A stretch of 64,000 nucleotides of DNA from Lingula anatina. Taxonomy: Eukaryota > Animalia > Brachiopoda. A program made the translations under genes and the position numbers. Shown here in pieces: positions 278 through 58,160 of the stretch. Within the stretch, counting starts at the first letter, position 1. Each line of letters begins with the position of its first letter. Below the pieces are notes generated by a model, which was not told the origin of the DNA, ran no database searches, and saw nothing but the letters and a program-made list of their open reading frames with translations. The stretch spans positions 3,906,001 through 3,970,000 of the forward strand of contig CM120641.1 of assembly GCA_051362555.1 (NCBI GenBank), written 5' to 3'.

Positions 278-3200
278 CGTTACTTGGATCGCCTTATACA
301 ACACTCAATCCACCTTGTTTCGAATTAATCGCTGATTCCTTCACTTCCAAAAATGACATGAAAGGGTGGTCGTATAGTGTAAAGATTGGGTATTCGAAAA
401 CTTACAAGTTTTATACATATTTTACTTCTTTTACATACACCCAGAGAACATCCAAGAGGGGTCCTCAATAATTTATTTCATCACTCTGGATAATGAACTG
501 GGCCTTACTCCGCCCAACTGAAGGTAGTTAACTGGCGAGGATGAACTTGTTTTCGCACAAATATTTCCGGCGCACAAGAGTTTGAGCCAACGTAAACACG
601 CCACACCCTTGATATATGTGTCTTCTCAGAGGAACGGAGGATTATATACAGAACAAGTTAAGAACCATTTCCTAACACATGAAATCAACCTGTATATTCC
701 TGTAAAATCATTCACAGTTTGCAAATGTTTCAAATCCTTTAACAAAAGTAAAATGTTCGTTTGCTGGATAAATGTAGAAAGAGAATATCACGCAAAACGT
801 AACAGACATACAATAAATTTTTTGCTTACCTTTTGGATGTAAAGTGGTAACCCAAACTCCACTCCCCCTTGCATCCGGAATCCCCAGGGGTGGTGGGTCT
901 GTTTGCGGCGGAGACGGACCTCTGAAACTCCCGGTGGGTACTGTACATGTGACATGGCGACTAAAAAACCACTTTCTTCTGGTTACGAATACCAAATTGA
1001 AAATACTTTGTTCCTAGATGTTCAGTAGAGTTATTTGAATCCTCCTAGCTTGAAGAGCCGGAGACGGAGAGGAATTTAACAATCTTCTCAAAGTTGATGC
1101 CCTCTGAAATGTAGGCTATGCACCTCTTGGTTCTCAGCACAAAGACGAAGACTCCGTATTAAATGCCGGGAGAGATCAGGCACCTTTACCTGGATTAAAG
1201 ATAATTTAAAAGCTGCGATCACCCGTCTTTTCCTATTTCAGCTCAGGTCAGCTAAAGTAACATTTAACAGCGGAGTGAAACAAAAATTTACGAAAGTGAC
1301 GAAGGTACTTGGAGCAGAAAGAACATGTGTTGGTCGAAACTTAAATGCCAACTTTTGTAAATGTTTACTATATGTGATTAAAAGCAGCAATGACATATAA
1401 TTGAGTTGGAGGCCGCAAAATGCACCAACCACAGTAAACCAGTAAGTAACGCTTCATATCCGACCTGAATAAAACGGCTATACTTCAAATATCACAAGTA
1501 AACAACCGAAATCAGTTTTGCCAATTATTTTCATTTACGTCTTGTGTATTATTTTATGTATTTCGTTTGTTATCAGGTATTTTTCCATTAATTGTTAGAA
1601 ACAAGATAAATTGAGTAAGTCAGAAGGTGATAGAAAACAGAATATGGCTCTACCTGTACAAGTCCGCTTCTATCCACAGCTTCTCTCCGAAGACTTCTTA
1701 TTAGTTTCCGAAAATTAAATCAGATCGGCGCATGGGTGGAAAGTCTTTTGGCAAAGAGTTTGAAAATGTTAGCTATCGCAAGCAGGTGAACGGAGAAGAG
1801 GAACTGTTATTAGTCACTTGGAATGAGTTAGACCTCGTTATCCCGCTGATGAATGTTCGGGAAAAATAAATTAACCACCGGGAAGGATTCAGGAGAATTT
1901 TCTAGTGATTTTCTAGCTTGTTTTTTGTGACTAGTATGGTCAAGGAACTTTGCAAAACAGATTCTAAAGAGCCCCATTCGGTAAACTTAGATTTTGTTTA
2001 TTATATTATTTTATCTATTACTGGTTTATAAAGGTATAACAATAGGATAGGGCATTTCACCTGAATTTTCCATAGCGTGGTATTAGTAGACATGAGCTCC
2101 AATACCTTTTTGTGTAGGGGATAACATAAAAACTGGCATTTATATACTCATTGAAATATATATCGATTTTTTTTAAAATCTGCAACGCAGTACTATAGGT
2201 CGTAGAATTATCTCCTAACATTTTGCAAGCCGAGGCCAAGTTTCGCCGCAGGTTCTACATGTATGGGGTCCATTCTTTAGTTTGTTTTAATGGAATCATC
2301 CGAATTAGCCCAAAGTCTCGAGACTTCTACCGAGATTTCGCGGGATTTTGGAGGAGAGTAGTGTCAGAAATATGAATGACAGACAGCGAGTGCGTTGACG
2401 AATAAAAGCTGACGGAACTTATCCATGGATATATTTCTGGGTTGTTTACTCATAAGTTGTGTCAAATTACAGTCTACTGCACAACAGTACAAACCGTCAA
2501 GTCTGGATGTCACTTTTGTATTGCTTTCTAAAGAGGCATACCCGGCACATAGAATTCCACCCTTATCTCTAAAATCAAAAAAGCTTACCCCACCAAACAT
2601 TTTCTTATTTCCTATAACGTCACGCATTGCTTAAGGTCTCTCGTTTTAGATTGACATAGTTGCAATAGTGCGGGGCACAATCCAAAACATAACCCAGCGA
2701 TTAAAACATTTTAAAACATCAGGTATACAATCTACAATTATATTATGTAATCCAAAGGTATCTTTAGCAGTAAACTTATTTGCAACGTTTCGTCATTACA
2801 GGATATAGTTGAATGCACACAACAGGGTCGATGTTCGTATGGAGTTGGCAGATATACCTGTACTGGTCTGTCACAGACAGAGACGACATTTTTTTATCAT
2901 ATTTATTATATTATATTATTTATTGAGGGTTAAAATAACAACAACAACAACAACAACAAAGCAATCGGACTGAACAATTCACCCGAGTTGCCCTTACCGA
3001 AATTTACACGACTACATCGCTTACTGAAACAAACGATCTGCGATGTATATATATCATAGCTATCGAGGCCATTTAATCTTAGAATAAATTTGAGAAAATT
3101 GGTCTCATATATAACCATTGGAATATTCTTGTCATCATTACATTGAATTGATTATATTTTAACCTCACAAAGCATTGCAGGGACAGGATAAAAGAAAAAT

Positions 3201-3604
3201 AGTGACCTCGAAGTGAGACCAGATATTTATTTTTTTGAAAATAGTTGTGGTTTTTACTTAAAGGGGCGTTTTTAAATTGGTACAGTTATTCAAATCAACA
3301 AATTTGGTTTATCATTTTTAATTTTTATCTGAAAAAATGTAGTGCTTGGTCTTATCATGAAAGTACACTATACAAATGACACTGCAAAACGAATAAAATT
3401 GCCTCCCAAAAACGGACTTGGGGGATATTACTTTCATCTTTTCGCTTGACTAATGAATACATTAGGCCTTTAGTATGGGCGATCATGGTTTCGTGGTTTC
3501 AAAATGACGCAAATTTATCTGAATTGTCGGACACAGATTACCAACATATCATTTTTAACATATCATCTCCGTTCCCTCTCGCTGGGAAATGTTCTCGTCG
3601 AGCC

Positions 3605-3697: not shown

Positions 3698-6600
3698 ATG
3701 AAGATTGGTGTACGGGAGGTGAGTTTTTAAAGTTTTTTTAAACGCCTGGGTAGTAAAACTTAAACGTGTAAATAATGTTATTTTGTTCCCGTTAGAATAT
3801 ATAATGCAATAAAGAAAGAAAGACAGAAAAAAAGTTTTTCCCGCTATAAGACACATTAGATAGAAATATGAATACGTCTAAAAATTCGATTCGTATTTGA
3901 AAGAAATTGAATTTTGATCCTCAGCTGTCATTTTTGAACTGTTTGAGAAATCTGCTTACGTTAAGCTCATTATTATTTCACCAGGTTTGCTTGTTCTTGC
4001 TGATCATAATATGCTCATGGGATCTAGTCAATGCAGGTAAAACTACCCCTTAATTATGATTAATTTGCAAACTATTATTTCGCAAACTTTATTTTCAAAT
4101 TATGTCGTCAAATTTTACTTTTCCTTTGGAAAGTTGACCTCTCAGTAAAAATAAGTAAATAAAAGGAAGATACGTGAAAAAGAAGTAGGAGCGGTTCAAA
4201 TCCCCGACGTCTTGAGAGATTAAGATGCCTAGATGAAACCCTGCAATACCGTTGCAAATGTGAAGAATAGAAACCGTTTCCATAAGAACATTTTCAATTT
4301 AAATTCATAGATATATAAGCGTAATTATGGCCATACACTCGTCGTCAAATATGACGATTTTGTTTTTCACGGTCAGCTCCAAAAAAGATCGTCTGCTACT
4401 ACACCAACTGGGCCCAGTATCGTACAGGCATTGGCCGGTACACTCCGGATGACATTCAGCCCGGTCTGTGTACACACATCATCTTTGCCTTCGCCAAGGT
4501 GGCCCAGGACCCGGAGACCAAAGAGTATACTCAACTCCTTAACTTTGAGTGGAACGACCTGGGTAAGTAAATCTTCCAATTAATGCTATTGCTTCCATAA
4601 AGGAGATAGGGCCTACGTTTAACGAGAATCATCATCACAAAAAAATTACATGAAAATAAATATAGCTGATTCATACAACTGGTTTCTATACATAAGCTTG
4701 ACAATAACAAGGTTGAGTTTCCAAATCTCTATTTCTAGCATTTTTTATATCAAACCAGTTCAAGTGAATTTAAACTGCTTGGTGTTGTTCGAAATACTCT
4801 TTTTTTTTAATCAAGTTATGCTAATTTTTCCTGTTTGTCGTAGCCATGTACAAGAGGGTGACAGCTCTTAAGTCCCCCGGGGTCAAAGTTCTCCTTGCCG
4901 TAGGGGGGTGGACCCACGGAGTGTGGTTATTTAATCAAATGGCAAGCAAGAAATCAACCAGAAAAACATTTATCAAAAACGCAATCGCTTTTCTCCGTAA
5001 GCACAATTTTGATGGTCTCGATTACGACTGGGAGTATCCGAAAGGTGACTCGAAAGAGAAATTTGCGGCGTTAGTTCAGGTAAAAATTATGTTATGGGTA
5101 ACTTAGAGAAAAAAGATTAAAGTAAAATCTGGTTTCAAAATGTATTGGCCGGTAAACGCTCTGACAATATAGTTTAAGGTTGATGGATATCGATTAACGG
5201 TGAATTTAAGTGAAAAAGCTTATTTGAGATATATGTAACATGGATAAAAATAATTATGTTGATATCTTGTTACTGCGTAATGCATGGAAAAAACGGACAA
5301 CAAATATAGTAAGTGACAGTTCTGAGAAAACCGTAGAAATATAAGTCGTTTTCATCCAATTTGTCGAAATACCAAGATGATTTTTTCTGCAGGAAACTCG
5401 CAAGTTCTTCGAAGAGGAAGGCCAAGACCAGAATAAAGAGCGACTTTTAGTCAGCGCTGCCATGGCGCCATTGTTGGATGTAATAGATGACGGATACGAT
5501 ATACCACTTTTGGCAGAGTAAGAATCCCCCCTTTTTTATTTTGCAATTGTTATTAAAAAAAAGTATGATCCAATAACGATTCAATGATGCAAAAAAATAT
5601 GAAAATGGAAAAATGTAATCACGCCCGAACAGGGACTCGAACCCTGGACCCTCAGATAACTTGATCATCCGTAAAAGTCTGATGCTCTACCGACTGAGCT
5701 ATCCGGGCGACATGCAGGGTATTGGGTTAAAGGTTTGATATAAATAAAACTACTGCCGGCCTCCTTTTAAAAGGGTTTAACTTTAATTTCGGTCATTATA
5801 AACATAATAATTTATAAGATTTTTTTGTCCATTGAGCTCAAGCCTTTTATCAACTAATTAGACGCACACAAAAGCCTAAATTTCGATTTTACACTGTGTG
5901 TACGAGATCTCGTTAAAGAAACGTGACTTACACCCGGATTATCGTTCTCTTAGTTTCCACATGATAATAAAGATAACGTTTCATTCATTATTCAATAATA
6001 TTATAATGTATTACGCCATGTTCATTCATGACTTGACACGGTTCCTCTCAACTCGTGCATTGATATCTGTTTGATATTTTGTGACACACTGAAATAAGTT
6101 GTCATAACGGGCACCTTGTGCAGATCTGTAGGCCTACGTAGGCCCTACATGTAGTACGTAGGCAACATGTACAGTGTAGGCCTATTGCAGGTAGGCCTAC
6201 TGTAGATGAACATTTCGAAAATCTGTCCACCTACGGTGTAGGCCTATATGTATATGCCACAAGGTCCTATATAGGGCCTCCTGGGGTGCCTAGGTCTACT
6301 ACATCTCCTTTGCCTCTTTTTATTTATTTTCATATTGTAGGCCTATGCCTAATTAATTTAGGCTACTGATATTCAACATCTCCTACATCTGCGTAGGATC
6401 ATTTCCATGGCCTACGAATAATAAGATGACAGTTTATTCAGCCTTTGATAGATAAATGAAATTCACATATAACAGAAATTGGATTGTTATTCGGGTAAAG
6501 TGAATAAAGTTAGTATAAGAAAACAATATAGGGCCTAGTTTCTAAGATATAGTTGCTAATTATTATTATTTTTTTTTTGTTATTGAAATGAGCACCAGCA

Positions 6601-8603
6601 GATGGATAGGGCATAAAAACTCTTTAAAAACCTTTTGGGTTTTTTAAAACTTAAAAGTCTACAGTTACTCGGAAAGACAAGAATGTCCGACCACTAGGTA
6701 GGCTAAAATTCAGCCGTAAATCCCGTAAATCATCCTAAAATATACATGTAGGCGATACCTGTAACCTATTCTTCGGGTACTTGAAGGCAAGCAGTAGGCT
6801 ACCGAGGTAGGCCTATGCCAAGCCTTCCTGTGCCTCGAACACAATTGTCATCCATTACATTTAATTAACTAATTCCATTTTTATTTCCATAAGATAACAT
6901 TTTAAACGAAAGTTGAAATGTAGCGAAACACGAAAAACGTTCTTTTTTCTATTTTTTTTTTCTTTTTTGCAATGCTCTTTTCCCAAAAGGAAAGGACAAA
7001 AGGGTGAAGATGCACAATACGCCCATCTTTTCAAATTGTTTTATGGCTTTATTGCAATTGGTTTTGACTTTCTTCTTTTTTTGAACAGGAACCTCGACTT
7101 CATCAATGTCATGGCGTACGACTTGCATAGCCATCGTCATTTGAGCCATCACAGTCCAATGGACAAACAGGTAGGTCTATGCTTCTGGCAGTATCGTAGC
7201 CTAATTAGTGATTATACAACGCCCGTCAGCCTCTTTAAGACACTGATAACTTGTTATTAAAATTCGGCAACTCTGACATAATTCATTTTTATTTTTGATT
7301 TTAAATTTATTTCTGCTAACCACCCCTCCTCTCTCACTCTTTTTACTTGTCTTAGTAGTTAGGCCTACTTTACAATAAAAAAACTTAAAAAATAAACCGC
7401 AGCTTCATTTTGCAGAGAGAAACGATCAAACATCTCCAATCCCTCGGGGCACCTGCAAGCAAGTTGATCCTCGGAATCGCGACATATGGCCGCTCATACA
7501 CTATGTCAGGCAGCAGCCTCCACGGCATGGGGGATGTGGTCACAGGCGCGGGCAAACCAGGCGTCTTCACCAAGCAGGGCGGCATACTGGCCTTTTACGA
7601 GGTAAACTTCGTACATGATTTATTTTTCTGTTCGTTTAAGTGAACTATAGTTTTCCTTTGTTTGATTAAATTTCAGAAAAATTTTACTTTGATTTGATTT
7701 GTAAATACGGTCATTGACAGCTGGCAAAAGCATTATGTGCGTAGACCTGTGCACGGGCACGAGCACTTTTCACAGCCCATTGAAAAACCAAACTGCACTT
7801 TGCCTACTGGTATACGTCTTATCATTAAATACATACTTCCATATAAGGTTTGTACCTATCGTAAAGACAGTGACTGGCAAGAGGAGGTCCATCCCACGCA
7901 GCAGGTGCCCTATGGTTGGCTTGGGTACCAATGGGTGGGGTTTGATGACGTCACAAGTGTGGGAGGAAAGGTAAGAGTTACCTGATAGGGCCTAAATCAC
8001 GGCAGTGATTATTGTACGTGGTGATGTAAGTTTCCATTAATCTGTAACTATGATAACTTGTATCACTCAATCAAAATATGTTTTTGTTTGTTTAAAAGGT
8101 CATTGTTTTAGCATGTTAGTGGTGACTTCCATGTCATCATCAAATTACAAGTATTTTCATATACTGAAACGGATACCAAACTGGCAAGGTTTGGCTTCTT
8201 TTTGTTAACACCATTGATTTAATTCCCACAAGCTTATGGGACTTCTCTTAAGAGCTTTTTGTAATTGCTTTATGTTTATACCCTAACCTGTAATTTTATT
8301 AATCTTTTAATGACTCAGTAAATTAATGAATGAATTTATAAATCAAATCATATTCTACTAAAAGTTACATTTGTCTTTAAAAAAAAAACAAAAAACAGAA
8401 ACGTAAAGTAGTGTTTCGTCTTGTTCCAGGCAAATTATATATGCACAGAGCAGCTTGGCGGGGTCATGATTTGGACACTGGACTTCGACGACTTTACTGG
8501 GGGATCTTGTGGTGAGGGAAAGTACCCTCTGGTTCGCGCGGCCAAGGATGTCCTCAGTAAGCCAAGCTGCTCTGAAGAGACCGAGGACGGCGAAAAATTG
8601 TGA
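3698..8603 (+). CDS. Secreted glycoside hydrolase family 18 chitinase (chitotriosidase/AMCase-like catalytic domain, no chitin-binding domain), 9 exons, 394 aa
   Basis: Exons 3698-3718, 3985-4036, 4377-4562, 4844-5079, 5393-5517, 7089-7170, 7416-7601, 7848-7970, 8430-8603; all GT-AG with compatible phases (1185 nt). Signal peptide MKIGVREVCLFLLIIICSWDLVNA, then GH18 motifs KIVCYYTNWAQYR, CTHIIFAFA, KVLLAVGGW, FDGLDYDWEYP (intact DxDxE), LDFINVMAYDLH, KLILGIATYGR, WVGFDD, LGGVMIWTLDFDDF. The first exon is the least certain. Confidence 0.93.
5622..5708 (-). tRNA. tRNA-Lys(UUU) with 14-nt intron (5658-5671), antisense inside chitinase intron 5
   Basis: Minus strand reads GCCCGGATAGCTCAGTCGGTAGAGCATCAGACTTTTA[CGGATGATCAAGTT]ATCTGAGGGTCCAGGGTTCGAGTCCCTGTTCGGGCG. 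This gives a 73-nt mature tRNA with intact A/B boxes, intron after position 37 and T-runs just downstream. Confidence 0.95.
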
Positions 8604-10427: not shown

Positions 10428-10734
10428 AGGCTCTGCCGCACACCTAGCGTAAAGAAACATAGGAGTATCCTAAGTGACATCCAACTTTGATCGTATGAAA
10501 TCACCGCTTCCATCATATTAAAAAGGATATGTAATTAGCTAGTCTAAGCGTAAAAAGTTGTTTTTGAACATGCTCAAAACATTTTATCTCCCTCTGGTTT
10601 TATATCCACCAACGTTTGCCTGCGTACTCAGGACGTATACGGCGTAAGTCTATCGAACCTCTCACTTTTGTCTGCTTATAGTATGGGTGATTTTTCTCAT
10701 ACGTAAGAGCTATATGCTAGGTGTGACAGTACCT
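10428..10734. mobile_element. MITE with imperfect TIRs and TTA target duplication (PIF/Harbinger-like)
   Basis: Left end AGGCTCTGCCGCACACCTAGCGTA versus reverse complement of right end AGGTACTGTCACACCTAGCATA; TTA on both sides (10425-10427, 10735-10737). No empty site is available in this window. Confidence 0.6.
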
Positions 10735-11794
10735 TTACAGGGGGTTTACATAACGACAGGCGAAGGAACAGAAGAAGAGGGTAGCTATTCTCTGCCGACT
10801 GCAGCCCTAGGACTTTAAAGTGGACCCATTTAGACTTTTTTAAAAATGGTGTCTGCAACTGTGCTTTTTGAGAGTAAAAGTTTTAAGGAATGATATCATT
10901 TACTTCAAAAGGATATACTTTGTTTTTAATTTCAAGTTTATCCAATGCATTCAGGTCTGACACATAGAAACCAAAATGAAGTACAGACATGTATTTCATA
11001 TCTGCTGTAAGCCCTTTATACGCTTTGTAGTAATAATAATAACAGCGATGATAATTAGAATAATATTAATATTTTATTATTATCATAATTTTTATATAGC
11101 ACATTCCATTTTCACTTAATTCAATGCACTTTACAATTAAGATATAAAAAATCCTCAAAGCTTATAGGAATAAAATACAGACTTAATATAAAAAAGAATA
11201 ATAAATTCTAGCCTACAGGCTGGTTATGGTGAAAAGGGTACGACTACTGCTTGATTTATATATTGGTGGGCTGTGAGTACCACATGCATTGTATGTACAG
11301 AAAATGCTCCAGAAGAAAATCGTTGCAGTGAAATCTCATTTTGCTTTCATTGTTGACATACGCTAAATGGCGGGGATTAATATTGATTAAATAGCAATTT
11401 TTCATTAGAAGTATGGCATTTAATATGGCCTAAAGTTGTAAAGGACGTGCTTTAGATACAAAACATATGAATGATTAATTTGGTTTCCTTGCGTACAAGC
11501 AGGGGTATTAACTCCTCATTCCAGACAGAGTGTAATGAAAAGCTCTTCAATAAAACTTCACGACTTATTTTACCTTAATCGGGTTATTGAGATAAGAATG
11601 TCTTGAATACTCTATCACAGTATTTTTTGTATTTTATGGACTTCTTTAATGTCTCTCCTGTAAAAAAATTATATAGAAATGCCACTCAAAACAATGCAAT
11701 AATGCATTAATCTATATTTTTTATTTGCAGATAGCCTTATGACCTCTCACTTGGAAAATCCAGGCGCCAAAACAAGCCTTATGATGTGAGGGCC

Positions 11795-11818
11795 AAAAAA
11801 AAAAAAAAAAAAAAAAAA
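11795..11818 (+). repeat. A24 homopolymer in the inferred 5' UTR of the RING gene
   Basis: Lies between a strong acceptor (ttttttatttgcag, ends 11730) and ATG 11830. Confidence 0.85.
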
Positions 11819-11829
11819 GACATCCAAAA

Positions 11830-13417
11830 ATGGGACTAGACAAAGCATTATTTCACGAAAATGTCCCAGGGGACCTCATTTGCGGTATTTGTCGGCAGGT
11901 TTTTGACGACCCAGTGTCTAATGTATGTCCACACGTTTTTTGTTTGAAATGTATTTCCCAACGTCTGCGCCATAATTCGTCTCGCGTCTGTCCAGTGTGC
12001 CATAAGCGCTTAAAGGCTGCTCCAGCATCGCCGCCGAAAGAATTAGTTGACAGAATTCTTACTATGAAAATTAACTGCACGAGCAAATGTGGAGAAGTGT
12101 TTGAGTTACGCGAGCTTAAAGGCCATTTGAATTCCATTTGTCTAAATGCCTTGGTTGATTGTGACTATGAGGAGAAAGGATGTAAAGAAAAAATGTTACG
12201 TAAAAATCTCCCGGAACACCTGAAACAATGTCTTTATAGAAAAACGACCTGCGAAGCCTGTGGTTATAAGTGCCTGGTCAAGGATTTGGCAACACATCAA
12301 CATAAGAAGAAATGCTTGCAGATTAAACTGAAACAGGACATAATTTCTAGCGTTCGGAATGCGAACAAAGAAATAAAACATCACTGTAAATCACTACGAG
12401 ACGCCCGTTATCATTTAAAGCAAGAGGAGCGCAAGGAGAGACAAGCGCGGCGACAATCTCGATTGAATTCTGCCGCTTCCTACAGATCAGCAACAGGTTC
12501 TCTCATGAGCAGCCGTAAAAACTACGCAAACGGTAGGGGAAATTACGACGACGTTACGTCCTCGACATCAAGAGTGACCAGTGGCTATAGCGTGCGCTCA
12601 TACGCCAGCTCTAAACCTCCACTTCTTGGTCCTAGGGGGTCCATCTCCGGAGGGTCAAAGTTTTTGCCTGCTGGCACAGGTGATACAAGCGTAGTGGACG
12701 TAGAAAGGGGCGCGGCCCGTCAAATGACGCCACGCGCACCTCACCCTTCCCGAAATGAAGACTTGTCCCCTAGAGAAAGGCTGTGGTGTCTACGGTGCGA
12801 CAAGCCGTTCTTAATGAAGAGCAACCATAGTTCGGCCTGTTCTTTTCACAGAGGGGTAAGTTAACACGAAAATTTACCGCGAATAATTTTTATTACGACT
12901 TAATGTTTCACCTATAAGAATCTCATTGTCATACTGTTATTTCCAACCAAACTCCTCATTGTGTATATAAATTATTTTAAGAGTTGTAAAACCCGATTAA
13001 AAGTCAGTCGTTCATCAAGGTAAAATTAATTCATGAGGCAGCTGTTTTCGAACTTTCTTCAATGATATCTGATGTGGAAATTTTGACCTTTTATTTCATT
13101 TTCCAATTCCTTTGATTCTACCGAACAGCCGGTAAGTACTCCTTATTCCAAATGAATTTTGTAATTTTTAATCGTAGAAGATTGCGAGATTGTTATCAGC
13201 ATATCCTCGTGACTCGATTATAACTTTATCTTTTAAAATGTTAGAACTGCCATATGAAAATACTGGTAACGGGATGGGATTTGGCAAAAATTCTGTAATC
13301 AGATTGTCTGTCCACATGTATTGAATTAATTTGCAAAATGAACAGTGCCGCGAGCCGGGATTGAACCAGCGACCTTCAGATAACTGGTGATATCTTATCT
13401 TATGCTACATAAGCCGA

Positions 13418-13455
<38 letters not shown>

Positions 13456-15182
13456 GTCCTTCCTCTACTTTGTTAGTATTTATTTATTATATATTTTACA
13501 AGTATAATTAACATTAAAATTGAATCAAAATTGGTCACGTTTAAAACTTCAAATACTCCGTTGTTATTTCATTATATTTTATTGTAACTATATATGTCAT
13601 TCTTTATAGATGGTTTTTGTAATATAATTCTCACTCTTATTTTCATCCCATTGCTATTGTCGGCTGATTAATTTTACAGATGGTGAGTGAAGTCTTTGAA
13701 CTGCTTAAACGATAAAGCAATTAAGCTCTTAAATATTGTTCACTTTTTTGTTTATAGTTTGCTTAGTATACTCTCTCTAAACGCGTTAATGAAGAATACT
13801 TAAAATTTCAGATGCATAGATCAAGGAAGGGCCTATTTATTACCCTGCAAAGAATAATATGAAACTAATTTTTTGAAAATGGCAAATGCACCTATAAATT
13901 TTTGTTTAACACGGGTGATAGATAATCATTCAATGAAATTGTTAAACGAGATGATAAATATCGTACATTTAATACTCTTTTATTATTTCTTTTCATTGCA
14001 ATGTCTCACTGTGCGCAGCTGGAGGTAAGCTTTTTTTAATAAATACCCCTGAAATCTAGTGAATAAGCAGTAATTTTGTTTTCGGAGCCATATTTCTTAA
14101 GCTTACAGAGTTATCTCAGTCCAAAGGTTTTAAAAATTAGTTTTACACTACAAAGATGTTTCTCAATAATATAGAAAAAAATGTTATTTTGGTTATTGCT
14201 ATTTGATTTGTTATAGCTTCTTTCATGTATAATGATGTATATTACCTTTTCTTTTATTTCCTGCACGGTTCCATCCACTTGCTAATTTAGTTATTTGTAA
14301 GTATGTGTTCAATCGACATCGTAACCACTTTTTTCTCAAAGAATCCTTTGCTAAGTTTTAAAAGAATATTTACCTTTAAATAGTAATAACAAATTTAGTA
14401 ATCCCTTATATGTTCATTGTTACGATCATAACTATTTTTGCACAATTATTCTGAAAGATGTGCATAAATTTACCTCATTTCTTTTTTCTTTCATTTGCCG
14501 TTTACTCCTCCTTTAGGGTGTAAGTATTCCATTTCTTTCCCAGACTGAAAAATAAGCAATTAAAGTTATCTTTTTGGATATCGTGTACATTCTAGTTATG
14601 TACATAAAATAATTGACATCAAATAGTATAAACCTAAAATGTATCTTTAACTTTATTCAATATGTTATATATTCACCTCAATTGATATTAATAAGGATTA
14701 TATTTTATTTCCATGTTTGGTCCTTGCCCATTTGACACTGATCAACTTTCATTTAAACAGGGAGTAAGTATGGACATACAATATGTCTGACATCATTTGC
14801 ATTAAGCCTACGTTTATAATACAAAACGTTTTTTCTATAATGAAATTTATACTCCAGCTCAAATATTAATCACTAGAAAAAATCATATATTGCTTTTTTT
14901 GTCAGAAGCCTATATGACGTTCACTTTACTCGATAGATTGCAATTCACATTAACATCACCAGAAGTAAGCAATTTGAATAAACTGAAACTACAGCGATAT
15001 ATCTCCGATTTTTTAAGATGTCCCTCATGTTTTAATGTTCATATAATATATATATTTCACAGATGTGTGAAAGCTGTGGAAGGCTCGACATTCATAAGGG
15101 ATGCCTAACTGGATACCACATATCAAACGAAGACAGTGAAGACGACTACATAGAGCGACAGGGAGGGGTTGAGACATTTTGA
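11830..15182 (+). CDS. RING-finger (C3HC4) E3 ligase-like protein with TRAF-type zinc fingers, coiled coil, Ser/Arg-rich region and C-terminal CHORD/Btk-like Cys/His domain (RNF151/RNF41/PDZRN-like N terminus), ~389 aa
   Basis: Coding exon 11830-12855 (CGIC..CPHVFCLKC..CPVC; three C..C..H..C fingers; ends CLRCDKPF..N..ACSFHRG|gtaagt), micro-exons 13129-13131, 13680-13682, 14019-14024, 14291-14296, 14517-14519, 14761-14763, and terminal exon 15063-15182 (MCESCGRLDIHKGCLTGYH...ETF stop). All junctions are phase 0. Candidate AATAAA at 15635. Confidence 0.85.
13129..13131 (+). CDS. Micro-exon 1 (3 nt, CCG, Pro) of the RING gene
   Basis: Long pyrimidine tract...gaacAG|CCG|GTAAGT; about 85 nt free of AG upstream. 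Confidence 0.75.
13346..13454 (-). tRNA. tRNA-Phe(GAA) with 36-nt intron (13382-13417), antisense inside a RING-gene intron
   Basis: Minus strand reads GCCGCGATAGCTCAGTTGGGAGAGCGTCAGACTGAAG[TCGGCTTATGTAGCATAAGATAAGATATCACCAGTT]ATCTGAAGGTCGCTGGTTCAATCCCGGCTCGCGGCA. This gives a 73-nt mature tRNA with a fully paired acceptor stem and TTTT downstream. Confidence 0.95.
13680..13682 (+). CDS. Micro-exon 2 (3 nt, ATG, Met)
   Basis: ttttacAG|ATG|GTGAGT; about 70 nt AG-free upstream; the same signals are kept in the duplicate at 56070-56072. Confidence 0.75.
14019..14024 (+). CDS. Micro-exon 3 (6 nt, CTGGAG, Leu-Glu)
   Basis: ctgtgcgcAG|CTGGAG|GTAAGC; about 65 nt AG-free upstream; duplicate at 56408-56413. 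Confidence 0.75.
14291..14296 (+). CDS. Micro-exon 4 (6 nt, TTATTT, Leu-Phe)
   Basis: ttgctaatttAG|TTATTT|GTAAGT; about 70 nt AG-free upstream; duplicate at 56687-56692. Confidence 0.72.
14517..14519 (+). CDS. Micro-exon 5 (3 nt, GGT, Gly)
   Basis: ctcctcctttAG|GGT|GTAAGT; about 55 nt AG-free pyrimidine tract. Confidence 0.75.
14761..14763 (+). CDS. Micro-exon 6 (3 nt, GGA, Gly)
   Basis: catttaaacAG|GGA|GTAAGT; about 60 nt AG-free upstream. Confidence 0.75.
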
Positions 15183-17176: not shown

Positions 17177-17378
17177 TTAAGAAGTATTTTCGAATAAATG
17201 TGCGTCACGCAAATGCTGAAACATTGGCATTTGTCATTTGTCGCATCACTCAAGCCGTCTATTTTTGTCTGCAGGATATAAAAACCGTTTCAATCAGCTA
17301 CGACTGTCATTTGATTTGCAGCCTACTGTGTACGAACATCTTTGTTAACAGAAGGTATCGGCTCAAGTCCTACACAAA

Positions 17379-20300
17379 ATGTCTGCGTTGCCTCTACTCT
17401 TTCTCTTGGTATTGGGATCAATCTGTTGTAGTCAACATCCCATACTGAATGTTCTTCAGAACGGCATATTTGCAGATACAATAGCTTCTTCCAACAGATT
17501 TTTACAAAATCGAGTGAGCTCCAGTCCGAATTTGTGTAGCCCTGCGGGAAGTCCAAAAGACTGTTTAGGGGAGAAGAAGTCACTCAGAAAAGCAACTCAA
17601 ACTATACCAAAACGTTCGTTTTCCAGACCACGTAGAAAGGCAATTGGAATCGGAAAAACAACATTCAACAGTAGTGAACTCACGGGAAGAATGAATTTGC
17701 AGCAAAACAACACAGAATCGAGTCCAATTCCAATTTCCGAAACATTTCAAGCCACGCCTAACACCAGCTCCATGGACGATTCCTCCGAAATTACGCCTTT
17801 TTCGTGGATTTGGAGTGGATCGCAGTTGGTTTTCCCTACCAATGAAAACTTTTGTTTTGTAAAGAACGGGTTGATTTCACAGCAACACATAACGTGTTAC
17901 TGTGACGCATTCTGTAATCTGTTTCACGATTGCTGTCTGCCGTATCTATCTTGCAACGAAATCTCCAGTGCGACGACGACCACAGCATTCAATATTACAG
18001 CAAGCCAAGTTGAATGCAGATCCCAGGGTTCGAAATTGAACCAGTTTAATAGGTCAGACTTTACCCGTAGAAATCCTGGTTACCGGTTTTTCTGGATGGT
18101 CTCATCTTGTTCGAGTAGAACACACAGCTCAACTCTCCGTCAAAAATGCGAGTTTTCTGGGCTCACAACTGACCTTGACCTTTTAAGTCCTGTGTCAGAC
18201 CCAGTAACACAACTTACTTTTAAAAACAAATTCTGTGCTGCTTGTAACGATGTAGTTGACACTTCAGTATGGGAGACGACATTCAAATGTGCATATTCAA
18301 CTAGCACCTACGAGTTAAGTGTCAACGTTACGTCATTACAAGATCTTGTTGAACGCATCGATTTAAAGAGCGACTGCTCGCTTTATTTTAAGCCACCGAA
18401 AGAAATTCCAGGAAGACCGTGTGCCCCTATTGGTTATCGCCACTACAATGGACTTTTATGGTATAACGCATGTGGTCCGGAAAACATTTTCCTTGAGGAA
18501 AGATGCAAAAATGCTCCATTTACATTGCTACAATATGTTACAGCTGGCAGAGACCTCATTTACAGCAGAAACGTTTTCTGCTGGTTGTGTCGCCTATACG
18601 AGTTCCCAGAAAGGTTCACAGATTGTTCAGAGCTGAGTAAGTCATTCATTAATTCAATTAAATCTCATTCACTAAATGTATTTTAAATCGCTCGACTTTC
18701 TTTCCATTGATCATTTGATGATGAACACTTCGCAATCTGGTATCAACGGCTGACAAGAAGTCAGTCCTTTATTTTTGTTAATTTGGATAAAACAAACTAT
18801 GTCTTTTGGTAAGTTGAGACGTTAACCCCCCTCCCCCCCCTACACACACACACATTTTGAGAAACTGCTCAAAAGTCTGCCACTTAATTTGCCCACGTGT
18901 GAGTTTGCGCTTGGCTTTAAAAGATTTATCGGCAACTTCATGGGATTTACCCGTCAAAATGGATCTATCCGGGGAAGTAAGCAATTTTCGTATACTCACG
19001 AATCGTTTTTTCTATCCCTCTCTAAACCTGGATTCGACCTTCAATTGAATTTGTAAAGGATGGCTTAGTTTAAAATGACTAGGCAGTCATTACAACCAGC
19101 AACCATCTTCCTAATCTCCGATGGAAATATGGACATCAGGTACGCTTCAGAAAATAAAATCATTATTTTAGGGGTTTTGGAAGTGAATGTAGATTTTTAT
19201 GAGAATCTGTTGATGGCAAAAATAAGTATTTGGAAGATTTCAAACCCGTGAGGTGTACCTTAAACATTCTGTTAAGCTTAAAGTCTGGCGCAAACTCATA
19301 TACGTGTGTGTCGAGGATTTATTAGAAATATGTGAAATTTCGAAAGTATTCATTGTTTCCTTATAGCCACAATTTTAAATGCGTTTTCTTATTGACAAAC
19401 CCTTCAGGTGACATAAGAGTTAAAGCCAACCGCGAGTATGATCCTGTCGGGTTTGGAGCAGTAATTGATATGTCACACGAAAAGGGCTGGTGTAAACCTC
19501 AGACAGGCACAGTAAGTATCTGATCATCACAATTGACATTGCACTTACCGCTGTCTTTTCTTAATTAAGCCTCTTTTTTATGACAGCGGTTATTTTTAGG
19601 ACAATAATATCTCAAATGGGCCATGTGACGCCCCATGCATACATTGTCTTGAGTAATATCTGGACCCCAATTTAACCCAAATTGTTATTATTTGCTATTT
19701 CCGCCCAATATTTTATTCAAAAATGTATACTTCAAACTCAGTTATTTAATTGTACTATATCAGTGGTAAAATGATTATTAACAGTCCGTTAATACTTGCC
19801 TTCCCCTTTTCATCAAATTATAATAAAACAAACGATGCCTATGAACATAATTCAGAAGAAAAAATATAACAATAATTAGAAAACACCCAGAGAGTATATT
19901 ATTAAAATATATAATAATATAATGTATACGATATATTATTAAAATATATAATGTAAAGGAAAAGTCTGAGGCAAAATATCAACCATATAATTGCATCAGA
20001 TTGTTTTTGATTATTTATACTAATCTCGCTGAAACTGAGCTGATTAAAAACCTACTGCTCAATAAATAAAATAAGGAAACGAACAACACTATTTATCCGC
20101 GTTCTGATGCTCAACGAAAGTACGGTAAATAAATAAGAGCACAATAAATTCTCTCGTGCTTTCGACCATTCACGAAGCTCAAGAGATAAAGTAACATGGC
20201 CAGAGAATTTAGCTCACAAGTGAGTCTCAATTTTCGACTTTAATTTGTATGTAAACATCGATTTCGACTTGATTTGTAAGTATATATTTGACATAATAGC

Positions 20301-21884
20301 GTTTACGGACCACAGCCAGGTTCCATAAAAGGTATTAGCGCGTATAATGGTCGAATTTTCTTTGCAAAGGCGAAGTCGTGGGAAGAAACTAGGCCTATAG
20401 TTTTGATTCCTCACCTCACCCGTTACATTTTGTCAACATTTCTTGAGCTGTTACCAACGGCCCACCTCACTGTCAAGTTATTTGATAGATGCCCCGTCTG
20501 GCCACTCAGGAATATTTACAACGTACATAATTTAAACATATCCCATTTACAGTATGCCCACCACTGCAGCACAATCAATGACAGGGTGACCTGTATTCGG
20601 TTTGCCAATAACGGTGGAGGCGTATATGTGACAGGACGGATAGAGATGATAGACGCAAACGAAGTCTTTACTGTTAAAATATGTATAAATGGTATTCCGG
20701 ATCACCACCAAACTCGAATCATTTGTTCCTTGGCCCATTTCTGACTTGCTCTGATCATTTCATCAACTTTTTGCATAATGTTACTAAAAGACAAACAAAG
20801 CCAAAAAACAAACACTAACTTATTAACTAACAGACTTATTAACTAACTTACTACCGGAGCCAGAAACAGAACCTTCTTAGCAGATTTAATTATCTAGTAC
20901 ATTTTAATATCATATAGGGGCGGATCCATGATTAATTGAAGGGGGTGGGGGATGTTTTTTTTTTAGGATTTTTTTTTCAGCGGGCCCCTTGGCTGAAGGG
21001 CCCGGAAATTTGTAGTGTTTTTGAGAGCGAACGGTGCCATTTGGTACGGTTTAGAACTATGATTCAGCTAATCAAAAATATATTTTCAAGTTTATATGTG
21101 TGATTTTTTCTTTAATTGAAGGAGGGTCAGACCCCCCCCTGACACCCCACCTAAATCGGTTACTGTTATATGTAAACATTTTTGGCTGTCTTATATTAAA
21201 AAGACTTAGTAGTAATTTAAATTTAGTTCTATGTTGTCAATATTTATACTAGTATTTATATTGTTTATATCATTTCAGGCACAGTGCTTTGCCTCAAAAA
21301 CTATGGAACAAGACCAGTGTTTTTCGCCTGTAGTTGGTGTCTTTAATGGTTATTACGACTTGAAGCTATTGATTGCCCCCCAAAATGAACCGAACGTTTC
21401 AAGGGATCATACCGACTGGACTGACTGTAAATCAATCGGGTACGATATATTTTCGTATCAATTTTACTTATCCATACGGGATGAATGGGAATTTTTGAAA
21501 GGGAAGATAACATGTACTGCTATGACAGTTGATGTGAACGACACGAGTGGCAAGACCTTCGCGAGAGCAGCATATGTCTACAATATCCCAGTGGCTTTAA
21601 AAAGAAAAATCAACAGTTTCATTGATGGCATTCCTTTCTTTGAACATTTGCAAGGCGCGGTTGCCAAGTACCTACAATGGAATAGTATTGTTATCCATAA
21701 CGGGGTTGATTACAAAGTAAGCCTCATCCGGGAAGAGCCGAAACTTTGTGAAGACGTAGAACGTGAGACAAGGGTTAATACGGTGCCGACACATTCCCAT
21801 GGGACTGACCGGCATGTCCCTCATTTTGTTGTATTACTGTGCTCCATTGGAGCTGGTATGTTTTCAATACTCAACGAGTTTTGA
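17379..21884 (+). CDS. Array copy 1: secreted somatomedin-B-like Cys-rich protein, predicted GPI anchor, 655 aa
   Basis: Exons 17379-18636, 19408-19511, 21279-21884 (phases 1, 0). Signal peptide MSALPLLFLLVLGSICCS, RPRRK site, CYCDAFCNLFHDCC, two C..C..(K/R)NxFCxxC modules, C-terminal small residues plus hydrophobic tail. Confidence 0.88.
20915..21166. mobile_element. Decayed TIR element (GGCGGATCC..GGATCCGCC family) in intron 2 of copy 1
   Basis: Homologous to the better preserved element at 61585-61844; only the right part survives in copies 2-5. Confidence 0.6.
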
Positions 21885-55462: not shown

Positions 55463-55805
55463 CAGCTCTAAACCTTCATTCTTGGTCTTAGGGGTCCATC
55501 GCTGGGGGGTCAATGTGCTAGCGTAGTGCTACCGTAGTGGACGTAGAAAAAAGGGCGCGGTCTGTGAAATGTAGATTGTCAACGTTATCAGCACATTCTC
55601 TTGGCTCGACTATATCTTTATCATTTAAAATGTTAGTAATGCCATGGGAAAACTACTGGTACATGTAACCTGACAGGACTGGGAAAAAATTCTGCACTTA
55701 GATTGCCTGTCGTCTTGTTTTAAATTAACTTGCAAAATGGACAGTGCCACGAGCCGGAGACCTTCAGATAACTGGTGGTATCTTATCTCGTGCTATATAA
55801 AAGGA

Positions 55806-55843
<38 letters not shown>

Positions 55844-58160
55844 GTCGTTTCTTATATGTTTCTTAATTATTTATTTATCTATTTATATATTTTACATGTA
55901 AAATTGACATAAAAATTGATCATGTTTTAACAAAAAGGTTTTTTTAATATGTCATTTCATTATTTCAATTGTAACCAAATATGATGTTCTCCATAGATGT
56001 GTTTTGTTTAATATTTTTTCTCACTTTTATCTTCATCCCATTGCTATTGTCGGCTGATTAGTTTTACAGATGGTGAGTGAAGTCTTTTTACTGCTTTTAC
56101 TGATTAAGCTTTGTAGATTGTCTAACTCTTAAATTTTGTTCACTTTTTGTTGTACTTACAAAACTCTCACTAAACCAATTTATGAACATATATTTAAAAA
56201 TTCAGATGCATAGATCAAGGAAGTTTTTATTTCCTTGCAAAAATAGGAACAAATTAACTTTTTGAAAATGACAAATGCACCTGTACATTTTTTTTTAACA
56301 CGTGCCAGTGATAATCATTCAATGAAATCGGTAAACGAGATGATAAATATCCTACATTTAATAATATTGTATGGCTTCCTTTCACTTCAGTGTCTCAATA
56401 TGCGCAGCTGAAGGTAAGTTTTTTTTTTTTTGTTACAAATAAATACCCCTGAAATCTAGTGAATAAGCACTAACTTTGTTGTCGGAGCCAGGTTTCTTAA
56501 ACTAACAGAGTAATGTCAGACCAAGGGTTTTAAAAAATATTTTAGACTACAAAGACGAGAATAATATGAAAAGACGAATATATTTTTGGGTTATTGGTAT
56601 TTGATTTGTTATAGCATTTTTATGAATAATGATGTATATTGCATTTTCTTCTAATTCCTGTGCGACTCCATCCACTTGCTAAAAAGTTATTTGTAAGTAT
56701 ATGTTAAATAAACATCTTAACCACTTTTTCTCATAGAATCCGTTGGTAAGTTTTAAAATAATATTCACCCATGAATAGTAATATAAAATTAAGCAATCAC
56801 TTATATGTATATAATAATAACTAACTATTGCAGAACTATTGTGAAATATGTGCATAATAAATTATCCTCATTTCTTTCTTTTTTCCTTTCATTTGCCGCT
56901 TACTCCTCCTTTAGGGTGTCAGTATTCCATTTCTTTCGCAAACTGAAAAATAAGCAATTAAAAGTATCTTTAATTTTTGAATATCGTGTACATTCTAGTA
57001 ATGTACAAAAATAACTGACATCAAATAGTATAAACTTAAAATGTATCTTAAACTTTTTTCAATATGCCACGTATTCACCTTGATATTGATAAGGATTATA
57101 TTTTCATTCCATGTATGGTCCTTACCTATTTGACATTGATCAACTTTCATTTAAACATGGAAAGTATTAACTGAATGGACAAACAATATTATATGTCTGT
57201 CATCTTGACATAATTTAAAAGGACGCATCATTTGTATTAAGCCAACGTTTATAACACGACGCTTTTTCTATAAAGAAATTTCAACTCCTGCTCTATTACT
57301 AATCATTTCAGAAATTAAAATACAGTGGATGGCTGATAATAATTCCTTTGGTTCAATGGGGTTTGATATGTTAGGGTTTATTTCCTTATCCCTTTAAATT
57401 AAACATTCTCTTATAATATTCTGTCACATGAAAAATACAACAGGATGAATTTGCTAATTCGAGCTGATGACGTGACAGCAACTTTTTGGGGGTGAAACTT
57501 GTAATATCGATTTCAAAACAGACCTCGCTCACCTTTACAGCTAATATTAAAACCGTTGTAACACTTATCTAATCAAAATATCTAAAAGTTCAATCTGATG
57601 TCACAGAATTTTCTTGAAGGGCTTTACATACTTTTGATTTTATCAGTTAAACGACAATGTAATGTCTTTGTTTAAACTTGTACACCTGTTGTACTTCGTC
57701 AATTTAATGGAACATCGGCATCCGTGGCTTGTATCTCCTACACATAAACACGTAAAACCAATGCACTGGATACATGTAGTAGTAATATCGGAAACAGATC
57801 ACACTCTCACAAAATTGACAAAACAGCCTAATTTACGGTTAACGCTATTTCTATTGCACAATTATTAATTAAGATAAGTATTTTATATTAAAGAAACGGT
57901 AAAAAAGCGATTTTGACAAATGTTGGCTTTCGTAACGTACCGAACGCCTTTAAGTCATATCACGGCGCATTTGCGAGCCTGAAACTTGATGGAACTTGAT
58001 GGCTAATCTAATGGAAAATTATTGAGAACACTAGAAAAAAATCATGTATAGTATTTTTGTTAAAATCCTATATCAAGTTCGCTTTATTCGATAGCTTGCA
58101 ATTTACATTAACATTATCAGAAGTAAACAATTTGATAATATTCAATTTGATGAGGGAAGT
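55463..58160 (+). pseudogene. Decayed partial duplicate of the RING gene 3' region (approx. 12605-15200)
   Basis: Collinear blocks: 55463-55560 ~ 12605-12720, 55575-57305 ~ 13180-14870, 58029-58135 ~ 14871-14975, 58146-58160 ~ 15186. Deletions remove the big-exon donor, micro-exon 1 and the terminal exon; an unrelated ~720-bp insert occupies about 57306-58028. Confidence 0.88.
55745..55842 (-). pseudogene. tRNA-Phe(GAA) pseudogene with intron
   Basis: Copy of 13346-13454 with the 5' half intact, an ~11-nt deletion removing the T-loop/B box and an acceptor-stem change. Confidence 0.9.

Follow-up and report, generated by a model that had tools for sequence, protein, structure and literature searches.

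How does a gene encode eight residues whose 24 bases stand nowhere together in the DNA around it? This question is raised by a gene for a RING-TRAF protein in a 64,000-nucleotide stretch of Lingula anatina DNA (assembly GCA_051362555.1, contig CM120641.1, positions 3,906,001 to 3,970,000 of the forward strand), which was analyzed as a whole and is hereafter called the window. Between the end of the large coding exon of this gene (12855) and the start of its last exon (15063) lie six units of 3, 3, 6, 6, 3, and 3 nt, which together spell the linker PMLELFGG (Table 1). These units were confirmed to be real micro-exons, at the very places where an initial annotation made from the letters alone had put them. 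That annotation missed the conservation of the chain across phyla and its recurrence in another gene family, which are described below.

Splice Signals of the Chain

A YAG acceptor precedes all six units, and each is followed by a GTAAGT, GTGAGT, or GTAAGC donor. The interval holds seven GTRAG words, six of which are the micro-exon donors. The arrangement YAG-(3 or 6 nt)-GTRAG was observed six times in the interval, whereas 2000 dinucleotide shuffles of it gave 0.074 on average and never more than 2. Units of 1–30 nt preceded by an AG-free zone of at least 50 nt were likewise observed six times (mean 0.15 and maximum 2 in the same shuffles). The AG-free zones upstream of units 1–6 measured 85, 68, 66, 72, 57, and 63 nt and the seven introns of the chain 220–548 nt, in agreement with the tracts of 55–85 nt and the spacing of 220–550 nt noted initially; all six exons are also in phase 0 and free of stop codons, as had been read from the sequence. 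The AG-free zones alone are weaker evidence for micro-exons, because a long zone is not peculiar to them: eight ordinary acceptors nearby possess zones of 11–77 nt (one-sided Mann-Whitney p = 0.03 for the micro-exons versus these eight).

Recent tandem duplication of intron-plus-codon units in Lingula was considered as a source of the chain and rejected. Its introns have no mutual similarity: when all 21 pairs of introns were compared, none exceeded the scores of local shuffles (lowest p 0.07).

The Encoded Protein and Its RNA

The large exon was assigned by Pfam to zf-RING_UBOX (34.9 bits) and zf-TRAF (42.1 bits), both over the cut-off, so that the RING/TRAF identity proposed at the outset was borne out. 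The Lingula protein has the RING-TRAF layout, with an N-terminal RING followed by TRAF zinc fingers; the long helix in the large-exon part was predicted from the model of a homologue (P0146). Judged by this domain layout, the product is a putative ubiquitin ligase of the RING-TRAF type, with RNF151/RNF41/PDZRN3-like labels, and the automatic database names disagree (TRIM22, PDZRN3, RNF41, RNF151, TRAF5). The micro-exons make up 24 of its 1,170 coding bases. Upstream of the RING exon, a 12-nt unit at 10632–10643 with a 72-nt AG-free zone and a GTAAGT donor was observed, which is possibly a micro-exon of the 5′ untranslated region.

The best match of the gene was the Lingula anatina RefSeq protein XP_013392436/7/9/40, four accessions that represent one 386-residue sequence (P0001). 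This protein reads FHRG-PMLELFGG-MCESC, which corresponds to the six units in exact order, and the window translated through the six units equals it except for one substitution, D290G, and, in the last exon, a 3-residue deletion. The joined 24-mer of the six units has no contiguous copy on either strand of the window. Because these 24 bases are not contiguous, the RefSeq model would have drawn the eight linker residues from transcripts.

Raw RNA reads were examined in four of nine runs of the same species, about 6–25% of each being read. Seven reads matched in run X2 and none in X4, while X1 and X7 gave intronic or repeat-like matches only; the chain exons were covered only in X2. Two X2 reads join 14520 to 15063 with two letters in between, which complete the second Gly codon and yield exon 5, exon 6, and the last exon in succession. 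According to depth arithmetic, the left parts of these reads occupy approximately 14393–14520 and 14458–14520, in the intron upstream of exon 5. Since the read depth covers 14393–14520, this intron is still present, and both reads are partly spliced, with the last two introns removed and the preceding one kept. Another X2 read ends exactly at 12855, again by depth arithmetic. No skipping join was present among the listed read joins, at a depth far too low to exclude skipping. The joined linker that the initial annotation had proposed to seek in RNA was accordingly recovered for exons 5 and 6 with the last exon, and not across the whole chain.

The direct read support, limited to exons 5 and 6, would accommodate another account, in which some of the units are not exons at all or the linker has a different origin, such as a contiguous exon in another allele. 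This account is very improbable, as the window has no contiguous 24-mer, the RefSeq linker is matched exactly by the six units read in order, and an independent filter recovered family-matching residues in micro-exons of five other loci (L025, L057, L061, L027, and L047).

Homologues and the Length of the Linker

Homologues were obtained from bivalves, snails, abalone, nemerteans, an annelid, amphioxus, sea urchin, sea cucumber, a hemichordate, an acoel, and corals. Of the 210 proteins collected, 83 contained the first domain half, four of them in a WxCC-type version; close cluster members are among those counted, and the figures are not independent of each other. The linker comprised 8 residues in 33 of the 40 complete homologues, 7 in three (P0176, P0205, and P0184), 9 in two, 4 in one, and 0 in one. 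Its P, F, and G positions are near-invariant among homologues, and conservation of the linker extends to molluscs, amphioxus, and corals. A homologue search limited to the region and using the domain only matched the Lingula protein itself and nothing else.

Many family records break where the chain begins. Thirty-nine of the 83 stop inside or at the linker, and 26 of these run on with Val (GT) right after HxG, that is, at the first junction. Other broken models end after linker residue 1 (nemertean, Solemya, abalone), 2 (abalone), or 6 (sea urchin), which match junctions of the Lingula chain. The chain explains this systematic annotation error, owing to which the CHORD-like domain described below is missing from many gene models. 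The initial expectation that gene predictors would miss the chain hence holds for these 39 records and fails for the Lingula RefSeq protein, which is complete.

It had also been suggested that up to 64 splice combinations could tune the loop from 0 to 8 residues. Such a chain would act as a combinatorial diversifier, of which the exons are skipped independently and in frame, and the resulting family of loops tunes partner binding. The exons would permit this, all being phase 0 and stop-free, and a few records resemble skipped forms. In the coral cluster (15 of 24 members listed, 13 of those listed being Logan members), the Logan members comprised eight with the full linker (43 contigs), one without VVDV (P0177, 1 contig), one without the next Met (2 contigs), and three ending at GVSR. 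The gap of P0177 is exactly one exon of the coral-like locus L061, a different species, and may hint at occasional skipping. Among the 7-residue records, P0176 of the coral cluster lacks the Met after GG and the annelid model P0205 lacks one Gly, and either gap might reflect another one-codon exon that was skipped or overlooked. Distant relatives also tolerate varied loops: 29 loci of non-animal-like relatives encode the loop uninterrupted with 6–30 residues. None of these is shorter than 6 residues, however, which corresponds to approximately 7 here by the CHORD alignment, and only 5 of the 64 combinations reach that length. The linker is moreover conserved rather than variable, its length is 8 residues in 33 of 40 complete homologues, the four Lingula RefSeq accessions represent a single protein sequence, and the linker-less form models poorly (see below). 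Independent skipping of the exons is consequently a quite improbable function of the chain.

Chains in Other Loci and in a Second Gene Family

The same spot was inspected in 73 metagenome loci, which were found by a pattern ending at the first donor. A strict micro-exon filter was applied to them downstream of that donor, independent of the Lingula units. L025, a bivalve-like locus that is 64–86% identical to a clam-cluster protein, contains a whole chain encoding P, M, IQVF, G, and G. Its Met exon, with an AG-free zone of 28 nt, fails the strict filter; it came to light when the absence of this residue led to a second inspection under relaxed conditions. L057 encodes P, then M, before the contig ends. 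Among coral-like loci, 61–66% identical to a Montipora-cluster protein, P was found in L027 and L047, and P, VVDV, and F were found in L061. The cut points fall after linker residues 0, 1, 2, 4, 6, 7, and 8 in Lingula, 0, 1, 2, 6, 7, and 8 in L025, and 0, 1, 5, and 6 in L061. The check proposed initially, whether homologues keep a linker of about 8 residues and the same exon chain, thus gave an 8-residue linker in 33 of 40 complete homologues and chains in L025 and L061 with cut points that partly differ.

The strict filter gave no micro-exon in the coral-like L004, L033, L039, L066, and L069 (337–2,261 nt downstream) and L053 (686 nt). These six loci are probably too short, because the first coral micro-exon lies 1.2–3.9 kb downstream. 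L040 gave a weak 6-nt candidate only, and the other 58 of the 73 loci gave 7 scattered hits in 6 loci and no chain under the same filter.

A second gene family was encountered in this set. In a kinase-type gene, a terminal zinc domain of the WxCC type is split at the equal point by micro-exons encoding K, F, L, H, and K in L008 and R, FLF, and NR in L070 (Table 1). The two eukaryotic loci share 46% identity, and the fifth exon of L008 requires a GTGGGT donor. A protein kinase domain lies upstream of the zinc domain in these loci, and because of this order the two domains would belong to one transcript.

The loci taken together show that the chain is shared across animal phyla and recurs in a second gene family, and they suggest that it is older than the coral–bilaterian split. 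Since the chain persists while its cut points vary, selection may act on the possession of many tiny exons, i.e., on the chain itself, rather than on particular peptides. Because the cut points differ within only 24 bases, the gain and loss of introns can be studied cleanly here. These differences would also suit a constitutive relic or intron hot spot, for which phase-0 introns were gained or kept long ago, all are spliced in every cell, single ones are lost at random, and no regulatory job exists. The near-uniform length of the spliced homologues and the 29 non-animal-like loci without these introns point the same way. Nevertheless, such a relic demands that six error-prone micro-exons were kept without benefit since before the coral–bilaterian split, and the chain recurs at the equal structural position of a kinase-type gene. 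A decayed partial copy of the region in the window further shows that the splice signals erode: of its five units, one no longer has either core dinucleotide, two have weakened signals, and two have acquired AGs upstream. The intact chain is therefore actively maintained, which would also be expected if the residues are simply essential. On balance, we consider the relic account doubtful.

A CHORD-Like Domain and Its Predicted Hairpin

The CHORD pattern is a two-zinc Cys/His layout with an adjacent CC in its second half. The family profile matched the solved CHORD domains of human CHORDC1 (2yrt, E 1.9e-6) and plant RAR1 CHORD2 (2xcm, E 3.7e-6), in which the linker aligns to the segment after HPG. 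An AlphaFold model of the domain (predicted local distance difference test, pLDDT, 89.8) placed the linker as a strand-turn-strand between the ligand groups. When this model was submitted to Foldseek, the top two matches were again 2yrt (TMq 0.68, E 8.7e-3) and 2xcm (TMq 0.55), with a probability of 1.00 and E of about 8e-3. With VIA, 2xcm was the only chain among 48,161 with Z of at least 2 (Z 5.8, root-mean-square deviation 5.3, 61 aligned). The predicted fold is hence CHORD-like, at modest scores, and the eight residues are predicted to form a hairpin between the two zinc-binding halves of the domain. This agrees with the CHORD/Btk-like Cys/His domain assigned initially.

Several features set the Lingula domain apart from CHORD (PF04968). 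It occurs only once, as the terminal part of a RING-TRAF protein, and although its eight Cys/His are invariant, its second half has CxxC where CHORD has the adjacent CC, so the CHORD layout is not reproduced. Pfam returned no family for it at E up to 1, the CHORD cut-off not being reached, while 3 of 14 alignment members matched Pfam CHORD (best E 8.5e-5). The Btk motif (PF00779), in which WxCC follows the HxG loop, was not found, as only a protist row among the 14 matched BTK in Pfam. The WxCC present in the kinase loci L008 and L070 is absent from the domain of the RING-TRAF family. ESM Atlas feature scores were all below 0.9 and are a lead only; one of 0.88 pointed to a cluster in which 19% of the members have CHORD. 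CHORDs bind Hsp90 (PDB entry 2xcm), and the Lingula domain probably binds a partner or a substrate for the RING ligase.

Four TRAF-type proteins (P0062, P0069, P0179, and P0208), three of them from Anaeramoeba, end in the WxCC-type version of the domain. The combination of TRAF with a CHORD-like domain therefore reaches beyond animals.

How the Chain May Work

A default product that includes every exon is very probable. Three observations were counted for this: four Lingula RefSeq accessions represent one protein, the 8-residue linker predominates among homologues with near-invariant P, F, and G, and a natural record without the linker, a gene model from a bivalve that may be an annotation miss, models poorly, its pLDDT being 75, 66, 55, 49, and 44 over the last five 10-residue blocks. 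The reading we favor goes further and regards the chain as an all-or-nothing splicing gate, in which the six exons jointly encode the hairpin and all of them are needed; our confidence in it is evenly divided. The introns would be removed slowly, from the 3′ end backwards, so that the tiny exons merge into a larger one, a step that the two reads suggest and that might equally prove right or wrong. Because all exons are needed, weak micro-exon splicing would cause a steep fall in the share of full-length protein. A failure would leave either a RING-TRAF protein ending in HRG-VS-stop or one with a collapsed domain. The chain might in this manner limit or time the production of complete protein according to cell type, the domain being completed only where and when micro-exon splicing is efficient, a proposal for which we see an even chance.

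Downstream-first splicing has been reported for 58% of SRRM4-dependent microexons (PMC10250204), as have detained introns beside constitutive plant microexons (PMC8831610), and the Lingula reads with a kept upstream intron fit both. Several points weigh against the gate. The Lingula RNA support consists of two reads, which may be mates of one fragment, from one of the four runs, and no read spanned all six exons in the 6–25% of each run that was read. A preprint reports rapid, upstream-first splicing of microexons in neurons (10.64898/2026.05.02.722430). The truncated records ending in HxG-V may be open reading frames called on DNA rather than retained introns in RNA. Rare variants are lost when transcripts are assembled, so that a majority of 8-residue linkers is compatible with frequent skipping. 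The two AlphaFold jobs with and without linker differ in length and alignment and are not strictly comparable, and pLDDT is no folding assay. No regulation was observed, and the chain could be constitutive in all cells.

The gate can be extended to an ancient portable module, that is, a chain of one-codon exons laid over a CHORD-like hairpin and carried by unrelated signaling proteins such as a RING-TRAF ligase and a kinase. Such a module would predate the bilaterian neural microexon program and switch the domain steeply according to the micro-exon splicing capacity of the cell, by a route independent of SRRM3/4. We rate this extension as unlikely.

Comparison with Known Microexon Systems

Neither microexons nor short runs of them are new, and micro-exon genes are likewise known. 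Mini-exon cassettes, for instance, occur in fast troponin T. The micro-exon genes (MEGs) of schistosomes resemble the Lingula chain in their runs of short symmetric exons, which keep the frame on skipping (PMC5825161). According to the same source, about 80% of a MEG consists of micro-exons of 6–36 bp, and its products are secreted or surface-exposed, fast-evolving, and without known orthologues. In contrast, the micro-exons are a minor part of the coding bases of the Lingula gene, four of them have 3 nt, the product belongs to an intracellular RING-TRAF type, and conservation of the linker reaches from corals to amphioxus. Neither the predominance of micro-exons nor the rapid evolution without orthologues is therefore seen in the Lingula gene.

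The neural microexons that depend on SRRM3/4 (eMIC) are similar to the Lingula units in being in-frame 3–6 nt exons with a long stretch before the acceptor (PMC8797185, PMC10250204, 10.64898/2026.01.16.699960). The downstream-first splicing in the two Lingula reads is a further likeness. For the UGC that stands shortly upstream of the acceptor in SRRM3/4-dependent microexons, the raw counts vary: TGC lies within 45 nt in 5 of the 6 Lingula units, and within 40 nt in 0 of 5 units of L025, 1 of 3 of L061, 4 of 5 of L008, and 3 of 3 of L070. The SRRM3/4-dependent microexons are described as bilaterian in origin with the eMIC domain and as poorly conserved between phyla (PMC8797185), whereas the Lingula-type chain is also present in coral-like loci and forms runs of 3–6 exons. 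Its coral-like occurrence would point to microexon splicing older than the eMIC domain, given that description (PMC8797185).

That exons of 3 nt get spliced and that microexons can adjoin is known from RPS24 (exons of 3, 18, and 22 bp; PMC12207440), Drosophila hth (a 3-bp exon; PMC7392893), MAP4K5 (a 3-base exon; PMC8632122), and plant peptidase M1 (adjacent 5- and 12-nt exons; PMC8831610). None of these has four or five single-codon exons per run, nor a chain that keeps to a single structural element in different phyla and gene families. Aphid bicycle genes share with the Lingula gene many small same-phase exons and a gene structure that outlasts sequence similarity, but they differ in being phase 2, secreted, and fast-evolving, with microexons along the whole gene (10.1101/2021.09.24.461719).

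No paper combining "CHORD domain" and "microexon" was found in the literature searched, nor was a single-codon-exon chain tied to a CHORD-like hairpin described in that literature, which included few subscription papers; the exons could be listed in catalogues of microexons from invertebrates such as amphioxus. Exons of this kind are too small to hold both splice-site complexes. Even single 3-nt exons strain exon-definition models, and a run of four or five is a natural substrate for examining how the spliceosome orders and defines such exons.

Neighborhood of the Chain

The coordinates of the chain, its neighbors, and the chains of other loci are collected in Table 1.

Table 1. Exons of the Lingula gene, related chains in metagenome loci, and other features of the window.
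Feature	Sequence	Position	Strand	Remarks
Large coding exon	Window	11731..12855 (ATG at 11830)	+	Open reading frame; RING, TRAF zinc fingers, predicted long helix, low-complexity linker, first CHORD-like half ending H-R-G
Micro-exon 1, CCG (Pro)	Window	13129..13131	+	Equal CCG exon in L025, L057, L061, L027, L047
Micro-exon 2, ATG (Met)	Window	13680..13682	+	Equal ATG exon in L025, L057
Micro-exon 3, CTGGAG (Leu-Glu)	Window	14019..14024	+	Residues found in RefSeq P0001
Micro-exon 4, TTATTT (Leu-Phe)	Window	14291..14296	+	Residues found in RefSeq P0001
Micro-exon 5, GGT (Gly)	Window	14517..14519	+	Two RNA reads depart from the genome after it; 3-nt Gly exon in L025
Micro-exon 6, GGA (Gly)	Window	14761..14763	+	Read letters between 14520 and 15063 complete GGA; 3-nt Gly exon in L025
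Last coding exon	Window	15063..15182	+	Second CHORD-like half (CxxC...GCxxGxH), stop codon; RNA depth in run X2
Chain of bivalve-like locus	L025	P 3066-3068, M 3451-3453, IQVF 3951-3962, G 4457-4459, G 5206-5208, last exon from 5409
Chain of kinase-type gene	L008	10195-10818		Five one-codon exons; L021 near-identical
Chain of kinase-type gene	L070	4258-4543		Three micro-exons
tRNA-Phe(GAA) gene, 36-nt intron	Window	13345..13454	-	ARAGORN, introns allowed; antisense in the intron between micro-exons 1 and 2
tRNA-Lys(TTT) gene, 14-nt intron	Window	5621-5709	-	ARAGORN; antisense, within a protein-gene intron
Decayed partial copy of the micro-exon region	Window	55573..57322	+	Units 2-6 and tRNA-Phe remnant; 85% identity over aligned columns

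Introns in tRNA-Phe and tRNA-Lys isotypes, such as the two found here, are unusual in animals. In the decayed copy, no last exon was found, and the large exon was present only as a fragment. A multi-exon gene resembling a GH18 chitinase lies just upstream of the RING-TRAF gene on the same strand (4355–8600). The region 17196–63337 is a tandem array of approximately 8.09-kb units, of which 24135–53479 are 91–98% identical and are flanked by older copies on either side. Two array copies, at 17349–18686 and 21216–21884, are open reading frames with signal-peptide-like starts; the first matched no Pfam family, and the second had weak hits only.

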